27,510 nt of DNA, from the IMG/VR virus record IMGVR_UViG_3300001914_000028, positions 1 to 27,510 of that record; one strand, written 5' to 3'. Origin of the DNA: a virus. Taxonomy: Duplodnaviria; Caudoviricetes. The translations under genes and the position numbers were made by a program. Under the pieces are notes generated by a model that was not told the DNA's origin, did not search any database, and saw only the letters and a program-made list of their open reading frames with translations. Shown here piece after piece: positions 1 through 13,418 of the stretch (its first letter is position 1; each line of letters starts with the position of its first letter).

Positions 1-1
1 C

Positions 2-343
2 TCCGCCATCCTCAAGCTGCCGGTGGACCGCAAACTGGCCATGACCGGCGAGATTACCCTGCGTGGCCGGGTACTGCCCATCGGCGGGCTGACCGAAAAA
101 CTGCTGGCCGCCAAGCGGGGCAACATCACCAACGTGCTGATCCCCAGGGAAAACGAGCGCAACCTCCGCGACGTGCCCCAGAAAATCCGCAACAGTCTGG
201 CCATCGATCTGGTGGACGATGTCGACGAGGTGTTGCAACGCGCCCTGATCTTGAAGACAGGGGAAACCCTGTTCAAGGATGTGCCGTTGGATTCCATTTT
301 CAGCGACTTCACCATCTCGGCGCACAACACCCCGGCGCACTGA
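2..343 (+). CDS. lon: ATP-dependent Lon protease, C-terminal proteolytic domain (5' truncated by window)
   Basis: AMTGEITLRGRVLPIGGLTEKLLAAKR is the Lon_C catalytic-Lys motif; the frame is open to the window start. Confidence 0.96.
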   Translation, partial: SAILKLPVDRKLAMTGEITLRGRVLPIGGLTEKLLAAKRGNITNVLIPRENERNLRDVPQKIRNSLAIDLVDDVDEVLQRALILKTGETLFKDVPLDSIFSDFTISAHNTPAH

Positions 344-415
344 TCAGGAGACCTTTCAGGTGCCGGGAAAGAGGCGGGGAAATTGCTAATAGTCCAGGGA
401 GGCTCTGTTTTTTTC

Positions 416-444
416 TTGACGGACAAGGGCGCACCTGATAAATA
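416..444 (+). promoter_or_regulatory. Probable sigma70 promoter for the tRNA pair
   Basis: TTGACG at 416-421, 17-bp spacer, TG-a-TAAATA at 436-444, just upstream of tRNA-Val. Confidence 0.6.
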
Positions 445-459
445 GACCGTCACCTTTTG

Positions 460-535
460 GGGCGAATAGCTCAGCTGGGAGAGCATCGGCCTTACAAGCC
501 GAGGGTCACAGGTTCGATCCCTGTTTCGCCCACCA
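460..535 (+). tRNA. tRNA-Val (anticodon TAC)
   Basis: Acceptor GGGCGAA/TTCGCCC, D arm AGCTCAGCTGGGAGAGC, anticodon loop CTTACAA (TAC 493-495), GGTTCGATCC T arm, encoded CCA. Confidence 0.98.
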
Positions 536-545
536 CGCACATGCT

Positions 546-622
<77 letters not shown>

Positions 623-628
623 GTATAT

Positions 629-665
629 ACGGGTAGTTGGAGAAATCCAACTACCCGTTTTTTTT
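629..665 (+). terminator. Rho-independent terminator of the tRNA operon
   Basis: 13-bp perfect stem ACGGGTAGTTGGA/TCCAACTACCCGT, GAAA loop, T run to 665. Confidence 0.93.
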
Positions 666-717
666 GCCGGGGGCTTCTCAAGGGGCTCGTCTGTAAAAAA
701 GAAAAGCGGATTCCAGT

Positions 718-791
718 TATAGGGGGGCACATAAACGTAGAAACTTTGAATGGCTATAGGGGGGCACATAAACGTAGAAACTTTGAATGGC
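718..791 (+). repeat. Exact 37-bp tandem duplication near the prophage left end
   Basis: TATAGGGGGGCACATAAACGTAGAAACTTTGAATGGC at 718-754 and 755-791. Confidence 0.97.
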
Positions 792-961
792 GTGGAATGA
801 TGGTACTTTTGAGGTACTTTTTCCAAACGCTATAGAGACTTGCGGGAAATTGAGAAAAATTTTCCGGACAAATTCTTAAAACAAGAAACTTTTCGGTTTT
901 GGGCCTGGAATAGGTCAGATTTGCAGATAAACCGAGAAAGTTAATAGGACCTGAACCAGCT

Positions 962-1699
962 TTATTCAGTGGCGAAGGTTCGGCAGAAAAAGATGATCTG
1001 GCCGATGATGTGCAGATCCCTCATTTCGACTTCGTAGGGTTCGTATTCGTGCCGATTATCTGAAATTATCAAGATTCGCCCGCCAGGGCGAAAAGCCAGC
1101 CGTTTGATCATCACAGTGGAATCAAAGCGGATGGCGTAGATCATTCCCTCCTTTATCGATCTTTTCCCGATATCGATCATAACGGTGTCGTCTTCCTGGA
1201 TGGTTGGCGACATTGAGTCTCCCAGGACACGCATGAGCACCAAGTTCTTGGCGCTGGATGCGACCCTGTTCAGCCAGCTTTTTCTAAATGCATAATACCC
1301 TTCGATCTCTTCCGAGATGACAAAGGCGCCGCCTCCAGCGGACAGTTGTGTTTCCGCCATGGGAATGTAATCGAACATCTCCGGATCGGGGTTTTGCCAT
1401 TGGGGAATAAAGATTTGGCCGTTCCCGTCGCTGACTATAGATTGCGGCTTATGCTCAGGCAAAGGCATCGAAGATGGGGCATCCTGGCCCTTGTACATGG
1501 GACCTTCGCCAACGAGCAGCCATGAAGGATTGATGCCATATTCTTTGCAGACCGATGCAATAAAATCCCCAGTTGGAGAAGTTGCCCCTGCTTCATAGCG
1601 ACCGATGGTATTCAGGTTCACGCCAAAACGAGAACCAAAATCTTTTTGAGATTCATCTTTTCTGATTATTCTCAATCTTTCGCCAATTCCAGTGTCCAT
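962..1699 (-). CDS. Prophage repressor, XRE HTH plus S24 peptidase (CI/LexA-like)
   Basis: N-terminal IGERLRIIRKDESQKDFGSRFGVNLNTIGRYE HTH; C-terminal GDSMSPTI and MIKRL S24 Ser/Lys motifs; divergent from the early operon; start chosen at MDTG (ORF extends to 1723). Confidence 0.93.
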   Translation of the reverse strand: MDTGIGERLRIIRKDESQKDFGSRFGVNLNTIGRYEAGATSPTGDFIASVCKEYGINPSWLLVGEGPMYKGQDAPSSMPLPEHKPQSIVSDGNGQIFIPQWQNPDPEMFDYIPMAETQLSAGGGAFVISEEIEGYYAFRKSWLNRVASSAKNLVLMRVLGDSMSPTIQEDDTVMIDIGKRSIKEGMIYAIRFDSTVMIKRLAFRPGGRILIISDNRHEYEPYEVEMRDLHIIGQIIFFCRTFATE

Positions 1700-1716
1700 A
1701 AAATTCACCAAATTTG

Positions 1717-1897
1717 CGTGCATCGCTTAAGGAATGAAAGCGATGCGGAAGCGATGCGTTTTTTTCGGGCGCATCTCTTTCCGTATCGCATTGATTTAAC
1801 GGTAGTTACAGAGAATGGTTTGATACGTTCACTAAAAATAAAGCGATGCACGATTTTTCGAATTGACAATTCACTAAAAAACGATAATTATCGTCAA
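1717..1897. promoter_or_regulatory. Divergent promoter/operator region (immunity switch)
   Basis: AAGCGATGC at 1738, 1749 and 1841, inverted copy at 1720-1728; TTGACA at 1863 (+); TTGACG at 1897-1892 (-); palindrome ACGATAATTATCGT at 1881-1894. Confidence 0.75.
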
Positions 1898-4891: not shown

Positions 4892-5626
4892 ATGGGTTCC
4901 ACAGTAAAGTTCAAGCCAACCTTTGTCCAGACCAAAAACGTGCGGTCCTTTGAAACCCTGATGCAGGGCCTGATGATCGGCAAGGGCGGGGCAGGGGAAG
5001 GCGACGAGCGGCTCGGCTGCATCTGGGGCCGGGCTGGCCGGGGCAAGACCCGCACCGTCCAGACCTGGGCGGCCCGAAACGGCTGCGTCTATATCGAGAC
5101 GGTCTCGGTTTGGTCCGAACTCGATTTCTTGCAGAAACTCTGCCAGGAATTTGGCCTCCGCCAGATCCCCGGCCGTCGTGGCCGCTGCTTCGATGCCATC
5201 ATCGAGGCCATGACCATGAGCAACCAACCGGTGTTCATCGATGAGATCGAGCGGTTCGGCCAGAAGTTTCTCGAAATCATCCGTGATCTGGTCAAGATCA
5301 CCGGCGGCATCATCGTCCTCATCGGTGAGGAGGAACTACCGCACCTGATGAAGCAGAATCGCCGGGTCTGGTCCCGGACCTACCGGGCCATGGAGTTCGA
5401 GCCGGTGAGCCCCACGGATGTGGGATTGTATGTCAGCCAGTGTACCGGCCTGCACTTGAGCCCGCCAGCCACCGAGATCATGCACCGGGCCTCGGGCGGC
5501 GACCTGCGAATTGTCCGGCGCGATACCATCAACCTAGCCCATGCCGCCACCAGCCTCCGCCGCACCGGCGAGGTAGATGCGGAACTGGCCGCCATCGCCT
5601 GCAAATGCGGGCTGAAAGGGGACTGA
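4892..5626 (+). CDS. MuB-like AAA+ ATPase (transposition target-capture protein)
   Basis: Walker A GRAGRGKT, Walker B VFIDEIE, VWSR arginine-finger region, GDLR sensor; follows the transposase. Confidence 0.92.
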   Translation: MGSTVKFKPTFVQTKNVRSFETLMQGLMIGKGGAGEGDERLGCIWGRAGRGKTRTVQTWAARNGCVYIETVSVWSELDFLQKLCQEFGLRQIPGRRGRCFDAIIEAMTMSNQPVFIDEIERFGQKFLEIIRDLVKITGGIIVLIGEEELPHLMKQNRRVWSRTYRAMEFEPVSPTDVGLYVSQCTGLHLSPPATEIMHRASGGDLRIVRRDTINLAHAATSLRRTGEVDAELAAIACKCGLKGD

Positions 5627-5628
5627 TC

Positions 5629-6210
5629 ATGACGTTGCTCTCGTATAACCAGCAGATTCTGGCCAAGGCCCTGGAGCTGATTGCCGAGAGGGGTGAAGTG
5701 ACGGTCACGGAGCTCTCCCATGAAATGCATTTGCAGACCTACAAGGAACACAAGCGCATGCTCGATGGGCTGAGTGAACTGTTCAAGGCAAAAAGCCTCA
5801 GCCGGTTACGCCAAGGGGTCTATGGCCGTCCCCAAGAACAGAAACAAGAGGACAAGCGGGCGGTGATGTGGCGGATCCTGCGAATGCGCCGCCGGGTGGC
5901 GGTGGATGATTTGGTGGAAATGGCCGACGTCGCCCCCGATTATGCCAAGGAATGGCTTCGGATGCTGGTGCAGCGGGGCGTGGTGCGGAAACACCAGCAA
6001 CCGGGAATGAAGGGCTCTTGGCAGTTGATCAACGATCCCGTCGACATGCCCGAAGACGACACCAAGGCCAATCGGCTGCGGGAATTGCGAAAAAAGAAAA
6101 AAGAGGCGGCGGTCAGCGTGATCGACGGCGCCCTCAAGCAGTTACAGACCATCGGCGAGGCCCTGTCCAAGGCTAGATACGCCATCACCACCATGGAGGA
6201 AGGAGAATGA
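5629..6210 (+). CDS. Putative DNA-binding protein with two winged-helix-like domains
   Basis: VTVTELSHEM..LSRLRQGVY and AVMWRILRMRRRVAVDDLVEMA..EWLRMLVQRGVV patterns; coiled C-terminus. Confidence 0.65.
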   Translation: MTLLSYNQQILAKALELIAERGEVTVTELSHEMHLQTYKEHKRMLDGLSELFKAKSLSRLRQGVYGRPQEQKQEDKRAVMWRILRMRRRVAVDDLVEMADVAPDYAKEWLRMLVQRGVVRKHQQPGMKGSWQLINDPVDMPEDDTKANRLRELRKKKKEAAVSVIDGALKQLQTIGEALSKARYAITTMEEGE

Positions 6211-6575
6211 ACGCATTACGGATCAACCGCAGTCTGGCAGAAATCAGCAAGCACGTCCACAACCTGCGCATCGGCACCCTGGGCGGCAACGTCGACCTGT
6301 TGGCCATTGCCCGCACCACCAAGGCTATGCAGGCCGAACTGACCTCGGAAAAGATCGTCAGTGGCTACCGCACCGACGCCATCGCCCAGAATCTGCGGGT
6401 GCATGAGCTGATCGAAAAGGCCGGTCCGTCGCCGGATCACCAGGCCCTGCTCGCCATCGGCATGGCGACGGAATTGGCGGTCAAGAAGCTGAACGATTAC
6501 CGCGAGATGTGTAACTTCGCCGCACAGCTCAAAACCACAGGTGGGCAGGATGGATTGGATCAGCTTGCTGCGTAG
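6207..6575 (+). CDS. Hypothetical phage protein
   Basis: GGAGG/AGGAG SD, ATGA overlap, in-operon position. Confidence 0.7.
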   Translation: MNALRINRSLAEISKHVHNLRIGTLGGNVDLLAIARTTKAMQAELTSEKIVSGYRTDAIAQNLRVHELIEKAGPSPDHQALLAIGMATELAVKKLNDYREMCNFAAQLKTTGGQDGLDQLAA

Positions 6576-7333: not shown

Positions 7334-7678
7334 ATGGCCACCTTGAAGAAATTGATCAACCAGTTGTGGCAGCGCATTTCTGCGCAGGGCGGGGTGGTCC
7401 CGGAACGGATCGCTCCCTTGGCAGAGGGCCGTGTCTACGAGGTGCCGGAAGGATTGCTACCGCGCTTTTTTGAGCTGTACGTGGACCTATGCAAGGCGGA
7501 GCGGATTGGCAGAGGCGCTGCCGAGGCATACAGGATGTGGCGGTTACTGAAGCAGCGCTGTCCAGAGATCAATGAGGGACACTGGAAGGTAGTGGTTCAC
7601 GGCTGGACGCGTGTCGAGGTGATTGAGGTGTTGCCATGGATGGCGGCACCTATCACCGAAACACAACGCTTGGATTAA
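7334..7678 (+). CDS. Hypothetical phage protein
   Basis: Starts 1 nt after the upstream stop, same strand. Confidence 0.65.
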   Translation: MATLKKLINQLWQRISAQGGVVPERIAPLAEGRVYEVPEGLLPRFFELYVDLCKAERIGRGAAEAYRMWRLLKQRCPEINEGHWKVVVHGWTRVEVIEVLPWMAAPITETQRLD

Positions 7679-7781
7679 GCGAAATTCCGGCCGGTGGCTG
7701 GTCTGCATGGGGCAGACCCGCCTGTTGACAACGCCGGCCGGGATCATCCAGAGGTGGCGCTCCGGATCTGATGAGCAGCCA
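7679..7781 (+). ncRNA. Type II hammerhead ribozyme with loop I pseudoknot
   Basis: GC-GAAA (7679-7684); stem III ATTCCGGCCGG/CCGGCCGGGAT; cleavage triplet ATC 7743-7745; stem I ATCCAGAG/CTCCGGAT; core CTGATGA-GC (7768-7776); loop TGGC pairs with tail GCCA. Confidence 0.88.
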
Positions 7782-7792
7782 ACAAGATACTG

Positions 7793-8074
7793 ATGAAAAT
7801 TGTTGATGGACACCCAACGCTGGTTTTCGAGCGAAAAAGGAGCAGAGACGCTTGTCGGCATCTGAAGATCCTTGTCGATCCAGCGTTGACCTATGTCGAG
7901 TGCGAAAGTTGTGGTGAAAAACTCAACCCGGTGTGGGTGCTCGAACGAATGATAACTCAAGCGAGCCACTGGAAGTACAGGCTCGAAGAGATTAGAAAAA
8001 CCCTTGAAAAACTTGAGAAAAAGAAGCGCACCAAGTGCGAACACTGTGGAAGATTCACAACGGTCAACACTTGA
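7793..8074 (+). CDS. Small zinc-finger phage protein
   Basis: CRH..CESCGEKLNPVWVL..CEHCG; lower GC than neighbours. Confidence 0.75.
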   Translation: MKIVDGHPTLVFERKRSRDACRHLKILVDPALTYVECESCGEKLNPVWVLERMITQASHWKYRLEEIRKTLEKLEKKKRTKCEHCGRFTTVNT

Positions 8075-8097
8075 TGAGCAGCCATAAGGAGAACCAC

Positions 8098-8436
8098 ATG
8101 AGCAAGCACCATAAGCTGCGGCACCTGGGGCAGCCCACGAGCCTGATAGCCCTGGCAATTGAACATGACATACCCTACAGCACCTTGAATCGCAAGTGGG
8201 CGGATGCGGGCAAGCCGGAGGATATCCCGCCGGAGATGATAGAGCAGGTGCGGAAGGTGCGGCGCGGACGGCGTGCTCCAGGGAAGCGGCCAGGGATGTC
8301 AGCGATCAAGGCCCGGCAATCCGGGTTGAGCCTGCAACAACTGTATTCCGACCCCAATTACCTGCCCCATATCCCGCATGGCGATCTCGCCCACCTGTCG
8401 GACAAGGGGAACACGGGCGCGGCTCGAACATCATGA
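8098..8436 (+). CDS. Hypothetical protein, possible HTH
   Basis: AAGGAG SD before ATG 8098; SLIALAIEHDIPYSTLNRKW HTH-like segment. Confidence 0.65.
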   Translation: MSKHHKLRHLGQPTSLIALAIEHDIPYSTLNRKWADAGKPEDIPPEMIEQVRKVRRGRRAPGKRPGMSAIKARQSGLSLQQLYSDPNYLPHIPHGDLAHLSDKGNTGAARTS

Positions 8437-9294: not shown

Positions 9295-9375
9295 ATGATC
9301 CACCAACTGAAAATTCTGTCCAGGTTCTACAATGACATCGAGGTCAGCGGGAAGCGCTTCGAGGTGCCGGCTTGA
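9295..9375 (+). pseudogene. Truncated ASCH/DUF3850-like N-terminal fragment (26 aa)
   Basis: MIHQLKILSRFYNDIEVSGKRFEVPA resembles the HxLKIxxxYF...GxKxFE start of DUF3850 proteins, then stops. Confidence 0.6.
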
Positions 9376-9920
9376 TCCTCACCTGTCCATCCTGCGGAGC
9401 AATCGCATCGGCATCAGCCTGGGAGAACGATATGGCGGCGAGGGAAGCGCTCCAGTCAATGATTACCCTGCCCGCCCCTGTGGCCAAGGAAATCCTGGGT
9501 TACCTGGGGCTGTTCCGGCCGTCGGCGCGGGCGTTGAGTTGGAAAAAGGCCAAGAAGATCACCGCCGACCTCGCCGCCCTGATCGCACCCGGGTGGGTGC
9601 AGATCCAGGGCAAGCCGGCCCGGCCCTGCCCGCCGCACCTCTGGGCCATGGGCATGGAACAGATGGTCGCCCGCGCCGACACCCTGCAGCGGCCGCTGAA
9701 GAATCACAACTATCTTCGTCAGGTGACCTGGCACCTCGCCGATCAGGCCGACGCCGGCCGCGAGCAGCAGCAACGCCGGGCTGAGACCGACGGCAGCCAG
9801 CGGGTGATTCGACCGGCGTCCAACCAAGACGATATGAGTGAGGCCATGCGACGATACATCGCAGAATATGGCGACCCATTGGACAAAATGGAGCAGCAAG
9901 GTGAAATCAATGGCGAATAA
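9372..9920 (+). CDS. Conserved Mu-like prophage protein with N-terminal CPxCG
   Basis: MILTCPSCGA..YLGLFRP..LSW..PLKNHNYL; TTG start overlapping the upstream stop. Confidence 0.8.
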   Translation: MILTCPSCGAIASASAWENDMAAREALQSMITLPAPVAKEILGYLGLFRPSARALSWKKAKKITADLAALIAPGWVQIQGKPARPCPPHLWAMGMEQMVARADTLQRPLKNHNYLRQVTWHLADQADAGREQQQRRAETDGSQRVIRPASNQDDMSEAMRRYIAEYGDPLDKMEQQGEINGE

Positions 9921-11055: not shown

Positions 11056-12123
11056 ATGATGAAAGACGCAGCAGGGAATGTTCCAAAAGAGCTGACCACA
11101 TTTGAAAAGAAGTGGCGCGATTCCGTGCAGTCTGGAGCAGCAAAGGACAAAATGCAGGAGTTGCAGGTTTTGCAATCATTGCCATTGGACCAAAAGATCG
11201 AGCTGACCATTGCAAAAATCAAATGTTGGTACGAATCATTTAACGGCCAGGTCGCGGTCTCTTTTTCAGGTGGAAAAGATTCGTCGGTTCTGTTGTGGCT
11301 TGTGCGCCGTATTTATCCAGAAGTGCCTGCGGTGTTCTGCAATACGGGCCTGGAATATCCGGAGCTGGTCCGGCATGTGAAGGCTATGCCAAACGTGATC
11401 ATAATGCGGCCCAAAATTCCGTTCAACATCGTGTTGCTGAAACACGGCTACCCTTTAGCGAGTAAGAAGGTGGCGAGAGGAATATCCATTCTTCGCCATC
11501 CAACCGAGAACAATCAAAACGTCTATCGCTTGTATGACCAGGGCATCAATCGTTTTGGTGAGCAGGTCAATGGATTTCGGATTGCTGATCGATGGCGCTT
11601 TCTGGTCGACGCTCCTTTTGAGTGTAGCGACAAGTGCTGCTCGATAATGAAAAAGGAGCCAATGGCAAGGTATCAGCGAGAACATGGTCGTCGCCAATAT
11701 GTTGGCACCATGGCTGCAGATTCCAAAGCCAGGCAAAAGGCTTACCTCCAGCATGGTTGCAATGGCTACGACATGAAAGACCCCAAATCCATGCCAATGG
11801 GATTTTGGACCGAACAGGATGTTTTTAGGGCCATTGTCAAGTATCAGATCAAAATTCCGTCTGTCTATGGGCAGGTCAGGAGCAAGAGCGATGGCACCAT
11901 GTATTGTACTGGAGTCAAGCGCACTGGCTGTGTCTTCTGCATGTTCGCCATCCACATGGAGCCCAGCCCAAACCGTTTTCAAAGGCTTTATCACAGCCAC
12001 CCAAAGCTTTACCGATACTGCATGGATAACCTTGGTTTAGGGGATGTTATGGCCTACGTGAGAAACAATTGCCCGGACAAGGCTGTCGCACATAAATTTT
12101 CAGGGCAGATGACACTGTTCTGA
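11056..12123 (+). CDS. Phage PAPS-reductase-family (PP-loop) protein with Cys clusters
   Basis: VSFSGGKDS PP-loop, FCNTGLEYPE, CSDKCC, RTGCVFC. Confidence 0.88.
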   Translation: MMKDAAGNVPKELTTFEKKWRDSVQSGAAKDKMQELQVLQSLPLDQKIELTIAKIKCWYESFNGQVAVSFSGGKDSSVLLWLVRRIYPEVPAVFCNTGLEYPELVRHVKAMPNVIIMRPKIPFNIVLLKHGYPLASKKVARGISILRHPTENNQNVYRLYDQGINRFGEQVNGFRIADRWRFLVDAPFECSDKCCSIMKKEPMARYQREHGRRQYVGTMAADSKARQKAYLQHGCNGYDMKDPKSMPMGFWTEQDVFRAIVKYQIKIPSVYGQVRSKSDGTMYCTGVKRTGCVFCMFAIHMEPSPNRFQRLYHSHPKLYRYCMDNLGLGDVMAYVRNNCPDKAVAHKFSGQMTLF

Positions 12124-12146: not shown

Positions 12147-12605
12147 TCACTTGCCGGCTTCGATCCGCTGCTTGATCTCGTTCAATTTGGTTTGGTACCA
12201 GAGGGTGTCGGGATTGTTGTCCAACGGTGTGACTCGTTCAAATGCCGACCCCGGATTTGTGATTGCCGCGAACGACGCGACAATCCTCGTCGAGTCCCCG
12301 ATCTCAAAGACATTGTAAGTGATCCTGGCATAAGGGGTGACATCGTATTGGCTGGCAAACAAGACCGAGGCCATTGCGTTGTCAAAGGGCTTCTCGAAAA
12401 CAAGGATATTGGGCGAGGATGATTTGACGGAATACCGCCTGTTCAACATCAGATTAGCAATCTCTGCCTGGACTTGGTTGCCGACCTTGCCCCTTATTGT
12501 CACTTCCGGCCGTCCGCTGGCGGTTTCGTGCCGGACAGGGGCGGCGCAAGCGCCGAGCAGAATGGTCATCAACGAGAGCAACAGGCATTTTGTGGCCAAT
12601 TTCAT
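12147..12605 (-). CDS. Putative lipoprotein
   Basis: MKLATKCLLLSLMTILLGAC lipobox; AAAGGAGAA SD. Confidence 0.8.
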   Translation of the reverse strand: MKLATKCLLLSLMTILLGACAAPVRHETASGRPEVTIRGKVGNQVQAEIANLMLNRRYSVKSSSPNILVFEKPFDNAMASVLFASQYDVTPYARITYNVFEIGDSTRIVASFAAITNPGSAFERVTPLDNNPDTLWYQTKLNEIKQRIEAGK

Positions 12606-13122: not shown

Positions 13123-13291
13123 GGGTGATTGACAAAATCATTGACACCAGGGGCGTTTTCGGGCAAAGCTACCCGTGCAGCCGCAAAAAAACGGTTGCCG
13201 GGTTTGGTCGCCCGAACGGTTACAGGGGACACACCGCCCCCTTCTTTTGTTGGCGGTTTTTTTGTGTCCACAGTTCAGCGCGCACTCTCTT

Positions 13292-13364
13292 GGGCGGGCT
13301 GGGCAGGGAGCCTTCGGGCTCGCCGGGTCCTGTACCTCGGTCGACCAACCTGCTCGGTCCGCCC
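13292..13364 (+). ncRNA. C4-type antisense RNA with flanking target sites
   Basis: 16-bp closing stem, GAGCC-TTCG-GGCTC hairpin, loop TCCTGTAC and linker CGACCAA; complementary TTGGTCG at 13204 and 13372, TACAGG at 13221, GTACAGGA at 13403. Confidence 0.85.
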
Positions 13365-13418
13365 TTTTTGTTTGGTCGCAAGGGGCGGGAACTTCTATCA
13401 TTGTACAGGAGTAACGCT

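Follow-up and report, generated by a model that had tools for sequence, protein, structure and literature searches.

A type II hammerhead ribozyme in the early operon of a Mu-like prophage and its probable role in early mRNA processing

The window, a 27,510-nucleotide stretch of viral DNA (IMG/VR record IMGVR_UViG_3300001914_000028), contains at 7679–7781 what its sequence and its covariance-model match identify as a genuine type II hammerhead ribozyme with a short stem II and a pseudoknotted layout. We consider it fairly probable that this ribozyme cuts the long early mRNA of a Mu-like prophage after C7745, serving as a built-in processing site between two genes.

The ribozyme and the prophage that carries it

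The window comprises the left part of a Mu-like prophage adjoining the host lon gene and two tRNAs. A prophage was regarded as Mu-like on the basis of a divergent repressor together with a DDE transposase, an AAA transposition protein, DUF3164, GemA, Mor and head genes, and matches to phrog_4, phrog_310, phrog_296 and phrog_846, the domains PF09299, PF11363, PF06252 and PF08765, and Mu-type head genes were all found. The early operon runs in the order transposase, transposition ATPase, two genes of unknown function, DUF3164, ORF 7334–7678 and the ribozyme, on the 3′ side of which lie a gene for a 93-aa zinc-ribbon-like protein, small genes, HNH, GemA, Mor and, later, head genes. Between the promoter candidate at 1863–1891 and position 12191, a single weak terminator-like match (5411–5424) was detected on the plus strand. 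The features of the region are as follows.

962–1723, minus strand: repressor, divergent from the early operon
1863–1891, plus strand: candidate early promoter TTGACA-17-AATTAT for the transcript predicted to include the ribozyme (sigma-70-like; consensus match only)
7334–7678, plus strand: gene of unknown function, 114 aa, with homologues upstream of the ribozyme in the related loci L002–L005 and L010
7679–7781, plus strand: type II hammerhead ribozyme (RF02276), from the stem II 5′ strand to the pseudoknot tail (Rfam, sequence)
7679–7684, plus strand: stem II 5′ strand GC and core GAAA, 0 nt from the upstream stop (sequence)
7685–7743, plus strand: extended stem III (folding; common to L003, L004/L005, L117, L183 and L414, with covariation)
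7743–7745, plus strand: AUC triplet, predicted cut after C7745 (Rfam alignment)
7746–7767, plus strand: stem-loop I, seven of eight pairs, loop GTGGCG (sequence, folding)
7768–7781, plus strand: core CTGATGA, stem II 3′ strand GC, linker A and tail GCCA (sequence, Rfam)
7793–8074, plus strand: zinc-ribbon-like protein, 93 aa, phrog_4865, with a weak ribosome-binding site
8072–8084, plus strand: TGATGAGCAGCCA, 13 nt identical to the 3′ end of the ribozyme, beginning at the stop of ORF 7793–8074

The Rfam scan returned a match to RF02276 (Hammerhead_II) at 7677–7784 with a score of 45.5 bits, above the gathering score of 37, and an E-value of 1.8e-6, covering model positions 1–66 of 66. The first-pass annotation had called a complete type II hammerhead at 7679–7781 and had proposed a scan with this model as a check; the scan agreed with the call over the whole model, and every element listed was found in its place. 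The TAA stop of ORF 7334–7678 occupies 7676–7678 and the ribozyme begins directly 3′ of it, as had been noted, with GC and the core GAAA (7681–7684). G7679-C7680 and G7775-C7776 form the 2-bp stem II (G7775 with C7680, C7776 with G7679), which has an open end, and A7684-U7744 corresponds to the core pair A15.1-U16.1. In folding, the 11-bp basal helix of stem III (7685–7695/7733–7743) had a pairing probability of 1.00 and its side hairpin (GGTCTGC at 7700–7706 and GCAGACC at 7712–7718, loop ATGGG) one of 0.99, in agreement with the earlier description of this stem, and the upper helix is followed by a 10-nt 3′ bulge (7723–7732). The stem I strands (7746–7753/7760–7767) enclose the loop GTGGCG, the core CTGATGA occupies 7768–7774, and the cleavage base C7745 is non-G, as the family requires. 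Stems I and III are looped and stem II is open, starting at G10.1-C11.1, as in the type II permutation. The tail GCCA (7778–7781) is complementary to TGGC (7755–7758) in loop I, giving a putative 4-bp pseudoknot, at one pair of which U-A is replaced by C-G in two of six aligned copies; the ATC triplet, loop I, CTGATGA, the 2-bp stem II and the GCCA/TGGC complementarity that had been read from the letters are thus all present. The fold z-score of the window ribozyme was −3.0 and none of 200 shuffles folded as well, indicating, together with the RF02276 score, that the match is not due to chance. Furthermore, a contig of run X3, which was not flagged as a possible source, covers 7465–8130 with 0 differences, and the ribozyme is thus not an assembly error.

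Other features of the window were also recorded. On the plus strand, a gene of the phosphoadenosine phosphosulfate reductase family (11056–12123, phrog_424) lies between mor and a C4/Rha module (13164–13367, plus strand), in which a C4 antisense RNA (51 bits) stands ahead of a Rha/antirepressor-like gene, with a c4-a1b1 match of 32 bits (below the cut-off) and an isrK-like match of 49.9 bits upstream of C4; the C4/isrK-like/Rha module also occurs in L003 and L009. At the left end of the prophage (719–790), a direct repeat of about 37 nt (719–755 and the 756–790 region, TATAGGGGGGCACATAAACGTAGAAACTTTGAATGG) was recognized by eye and is possibly part of a transposase-binding end region. A short frame that starts with MIHQLKI at about 9297 appears to break off near 9370, ahead of a gene at about 9432. 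Over 9373–9770, the window and L002 are 71% identical, and the interruption at 9300–9440 is possibly a deletion scar.

Anatomy of the family and its distribution among related loci

In total, 184 distinct copies of the family were extracted with a descriptor that required stem pairing, and the pairing rates reported for them are therefore inflated. The triplet was GTC in 167 and ATC in 11 of the 184 copies. The element started within 3 nt of the upstream stop codon in 105 of 178 copies and within 15 nt in 154 (counted without a shuffled control), a start codon with a Shine–Dalgarno (SD)-like word followed within 25 nt of the tail in 113 of the 178 copies with flanks, and an SD-like 4-mer was found within 20 nt after the tail in 131 of 183 copies, compared with 20% of random 20-mers. 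As judged from these positions, members of the family occupy the space that separates a stop codon from the ribosome-binding site after it. The window gene at 7793 failed the SD test applied to the family copies. In six aligned copies of the clade to which the window belongs, 13 of 37 pairs change on both sides, and 95.5% of cells pair, compared with 21–42% in slid controls; two-sided changes were found at seven of the eight stem I pairs and at one pseudoknot pair. None of 500 shuffles reached the covariation score, a control that related sequences can beat.

Eighty viral loci were collected by their DUF3164 protein and all of them were scanned with Rfam. Hammerhead_II was present at the gathering score in 28 loci, two of which have two copies, and L003 adds one hammerhead by descriptor, making 29 of 80; all 11 of the nearest loci carry the hammerhead. 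Every hammerhead in these loci lies downstream of DUF3164 on the same (sense) strand, and it lies between DUF3164 and gemA in all nine of the nearest loci where gemA was detected, though its distance past DUF3164 in relatives ranges from about 10 nt to more than 1 kb, with changing neighbours. About 51 of the 80 loci were without such a ribozyme within the DNA retrieved, and it is thus dispensable. A loop and core pattern matched 131 stretches in 15 of the 64 parts of the viral collection, from which about 530 are estimated overall. Of 80 pattern loci with flanks, some of which overlap on one contig, 63 had a tblastn match to MuA, MuB, DUF3164, GemA or Mor of the window within 3 kb. Mu-like early operons are thus the commonest setting of this type II subtype in the sample and its usual home. 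The surprise implied in the first-pass annotation is, on these counts, not supported, and prophage-borne type II hammerheads had already been published (Perreault, 2011; PMC3088659).

The window ribozyme is sense-oriented and belongs to the variable early block. Four genes (5629–6210, 6207–6575, DUF3164 and 7334–7678) separate it from MuB, and gemA and mor lie downstream. The earlier proposal that cleavage separates the transposition genes from the accessory genes is thus too neat, for the cut lies inside the accessory block.

On a 57-kb viral contig (IMGVR_UViG_3300017605_000570), one strand carries at least 21 type II hammerheads (L248:233–5956 and L246:2997–3082), 20 of them Rfam matches within 6 kb, mostly one per small gene of unknown function; the copies start 0–5 nt after a stop and end 13–17 nt before an ATG, with no Mu marker nearby. 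This array has far more copies than the triple arrangements described by Perreault (2011; PMC3088659). L117:1275–3275, on a related metagenome contig, shares both tRNAs and the flank with the window (80% identity to window 1–1222) and retains a repressor fragment, the extended hammerhead with AAC for AUC and gemA, without MuA, MuB or DUF3164; it resembles the decayed remains of a prophage at this host site. The hammerhead at L001:3890–3957 (41 bits) has the core TTGACAA for CTGAnGA, a paired U3/A8 change.

Processing of the early mRNA and alternative readings

Hammerhead cleavage leaves a 2′,3′-cyclic phosphate on the 5′ piece and a 5′-OH on the 3′ piece. The type II layout would place the cut between two hairpins, with the products joined by stem II alone, and since stem II has only 2 bp, we infer that the pieces would part and not rejoin. 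The upstream piece, which carries MuA, MuB, DUF3164 and further genes, would have the stem III hairpin (about −40 kcal/mol) at its 3′ terminus, and the downstream piece would open with a 5′-OH, stem-loop I and the core, followed by the ribosome-binding site. Each half of the early message would thereby get its own protected end and decay rate, as a stabilizing role of such ends may be expected from what is generally known of bacterial RNA decay, and any gene landing behind the ribozyme would receive the same 5′ leader. Tandem hammerheads of prophages cleave in vitro and in Escherichia coli, and mRNA processing was proposed for the three prophage clusters shown to cleave, while 4 of the 18 consensus hammerheads tested were inactive (Perreault, 2011; PMC3088659); the purpose of self-cleaving ribozymes in bacteria and phages has been called undefined or open (PMC6765202, 2019; PMC6155905).

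Stem I of the window copy contains a mismatch, A7750·C7763, that was absent from the first-pass annotation and leaves seven pairs; in L003 and L183 this stem is fully paired. The energy of stem-loop I is −7.1 kcal/mol, compared with −13.3 kcal/mol with a G-C pair there, and the window copy may be slow because the mismatch weakens stem I. Nested folding, which ignores the pseudoknot, gave stem I a probability of 0.01–0.35 depending on the ends chosen, where the family median is 0.93 when flanks are included and 0.98 when they are not, and placed the native fold, without pseudoknot energy, about 5 kcal/mol above the minimum for 7670–7800; a rival helix (7754–7761/7772–7780) pairs loop I with core and tail and so occupies part of the core. 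These values would suit a copy that is a decaying relic, largely misfolded or inactive and drifting in the prophage while the family at large is functional. Consistent with such decay, 157 of 164 canonical copies pair at the mismatch position (a figure inflated by the selection on stem pairing), G stands at 7750 in other contigs from the same runs, and decayed copies occur in relatives, namely AAC for AUC in the heavily deleted L117 prophage and partial copies in L240 and L267. However, the core residues, stem II and the 4-bp pseudoknot complementarity are all intact, A·C occurs at the same position in 4 of the 164 copies, and the neighbouring Mu genes look intact. L005 and L414 were also low in nested folding (0.00 and 0.32) despite a fully or nearly fully paired stem I, which, with the pseudoknot left out, makes this score a weak guide. 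We regard a relic as unlikely; the window copy is likely slower than the family norm because of its stem I mismatch, and the folding values point to reduced speed without demonstrating that the ribozyme is dead.

Stem III is another local peculiarity. An arm of at least 50 nt was found in only 5 of 184 copies, and that of the window has 58 nt compared with a median of 17. In the clade, the arm begins with a lower helix, carries some 10 bulged nt on its 3′ side and continues into an upper helix whose GC-AUGGG-GC tip is invariant, and it is common to the window, L003, L004, L005, L117, L183 and L414 (seven contigs, about five lineages). RNAalifold likewise recovered this arm, with covariation at 6 of its 23 pairs. 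The extended structure is under selection, though in a clade of few and closely related members. Several other readings of this region were rejected. Only the hammerhead matches Rfam over 7677–7784, which leaves neither a known RNA family nor a C4 antisense target; the TTGACA within the extension was not called as a promoter; and the frame of an ORF through the ribozyme is not kept in L004. As for a free-standing repeat, the matches without a hammerhead look like chance (16 of 19 extension-pattern matches in viral contigs; for a second pattern, 7 of 10 by strict core and 6 of 10 by eye; 114 of 117 in metagenomes, from a scan of 28 of 64 parts).

The exact copy of the ribozyme tail at 8072–8084 lies 303 nt downstream, and about 1e-3 exact matches of this sequence would be expected by chance in the window. 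It is followed by AAGGAG and then ATG at 8098, as with a normal ribozyme tail, and the stop of the 7793 gene is natural, its homologues ending at the same place. A whole second hammerhead at 8037–8084 was rejected: the segment reads GAAC in place of GAAA, carries U where C3 should stand and lacks a stem I, it gave no Rfam match at E up to 10, and it is the coding sequence for KCEHCG, a conserved motif of the 7793 protein. Nor would the tail at 8072 complete the real core from afar, for by eye the bases before 8071 cannot pair with 7746–7753. Family copies often begin TGAT-GCGAAA or TGA-GCGAAA, and a deletion between such a start and the core TGATGA would therefore drop a second ribozyme and leave this tail; L240 and L267 are partly deleted copies that keep tail and SD. 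The repeat is thus, to judge from the sequence, likely the remnant of a lost second ribozyme, a reading we favour over one in which the 7793 gene was inserted and the tail thereby duplicated, although such an insertion fits the repeat as well. Searches for relatives of the 8098 gene with DNA context yielded two marginal matches only.

The repeat also bears on the idea that the ribozyme is chiefly an anchor for gene exchange, in which repeated ribozyme DNA would provide homology at gene borders, genes would move as ribozyme-bounded cassettes and cleavage would be secondary. ORF 7793–8074 does lie between direct repeats. When the window was compared with 10 near loci and L117 by crude ORF calls, the downstream gene was shared by L007 and L008 only; L052 and L054 each have single genes flanked by tandem copies, and one array runs to 20 copies. 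However, none of the 62 loci that hold relatives of the 7793 gene had a hammerhead tail nearby, though these relatives are distant (20–49% identity); closer relatives of its protein, at 68–77% (P0002–P0004), were found without DNA context. No contig joint skipping 7782–8084 was found in four runs, in which contigs show presence only. Moreover, stems kept by compensatory change in copies of diverging sequence point to selection on RNA structure and not on DNA identity, and this region varies among Mu-like phages whether or not they carry a ribozyme. Gene exchange as the main function is, on this evidence, improbable. Somewhat more doubtful still is a regulated ribozyme, whose cleavage would be switched by a factor on the stem III extension or by a ribosome terminating at the adjacent stop. 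The rarity of long arms, the retention of the extension across seven contigs while stem I sequence diverges, and a start at a stop codon where upstream coding bases can pair with the 5′ part of the ribozyme would all suit such control. Yet 11 very stable base pairs part the extension from the core, making it a poor place for allosteric control; GCATGG also tips five ordinary short stem III hairpins and may have been inherited and not selected; the clade has few members, and these are close relatives; the upstream rival pairing varies with the ends chosen; and with flanks included, stem I retains a probability of at least 0.2 in 160 of 182 family copies. We give just as little credence to a combined version in which a stem III domain binds a protein or metabolite and switches cleavage or the fate of the transposase-mRNA 3′ end, with the tail acting as a junction for swapping accessory genes. 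If true, this version would mean that a small clade of Mu-like phages has a naturally regulated hammerhead timing phage transposition, and the 13-nt repeat at 8072–8084 would record accessory-gene swapping. A protective 3′ end is a simpler reading of the extended stem III than a switch.

Comparison with known systems

The window copy is one more member of a catalogued family, with two small local features. The concentration of the subtype in Mu-like early operons, from stop codon to ribosome-binding site, is testable in a culturable Mu-like phage; for such a test, the uncultured window copy and its weak stem I would be a less than ideal choice. The family, the type II layout, the 2-bp stem II, the pseudoknot, the prophage setting and the processing idea are already published (Perreault, 2011; PMC3088659). 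Neither the association with Mu-like phages nor the extended stem III was the subject of any paper that our literature search returned, though Figure 3 and Dataset S1 of Perreault, or the comparative-genomics ribozyme papers of 2014–2015, may hold both.

As far as RF02276 and Perreault (2011; PMC3088659) describe the family, the window copy shares its full core, its open 2-bp stem II, its looped stems I and III, the complementarity for its 4-bp pseudoknot between loop I and the 3′ tail, and its intergenic position in a prophage. It differs from a typical RF02276 member in its AUC instead of the usual GUC, in its 58-nt stem III with a bulge and an AUGGG-capped upper helix, and in the single A·C mismatch of stem I. 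The clustered prophage hammerheads of Clostridium scindens, Azorhizobium caulinodans and Agrobacterium tumefaciens, as described in PMC3088659, flank single genes. Like them, the window ribozyme marks the border of a gene within a polycistronic prophage transcript, its neighbours vary, and a second 3′ tail follows the next gene; unlike them, it is the only complete ribozyme there, and the second site consists of 13 nt that cannot form stem I or stem III. RiboJ, a synthetic hammerhead with an added hairpin (PMC8942793), offers a comparison in manner of working and not in sequence membership. In both, the cut falls 5′ of a ribosome-binding site and would give the downstream message a uniform, hairpin-led 5′ end, whereas RiboJ is placed after a promoter and the window copy is natural, of type II and located within an operon.
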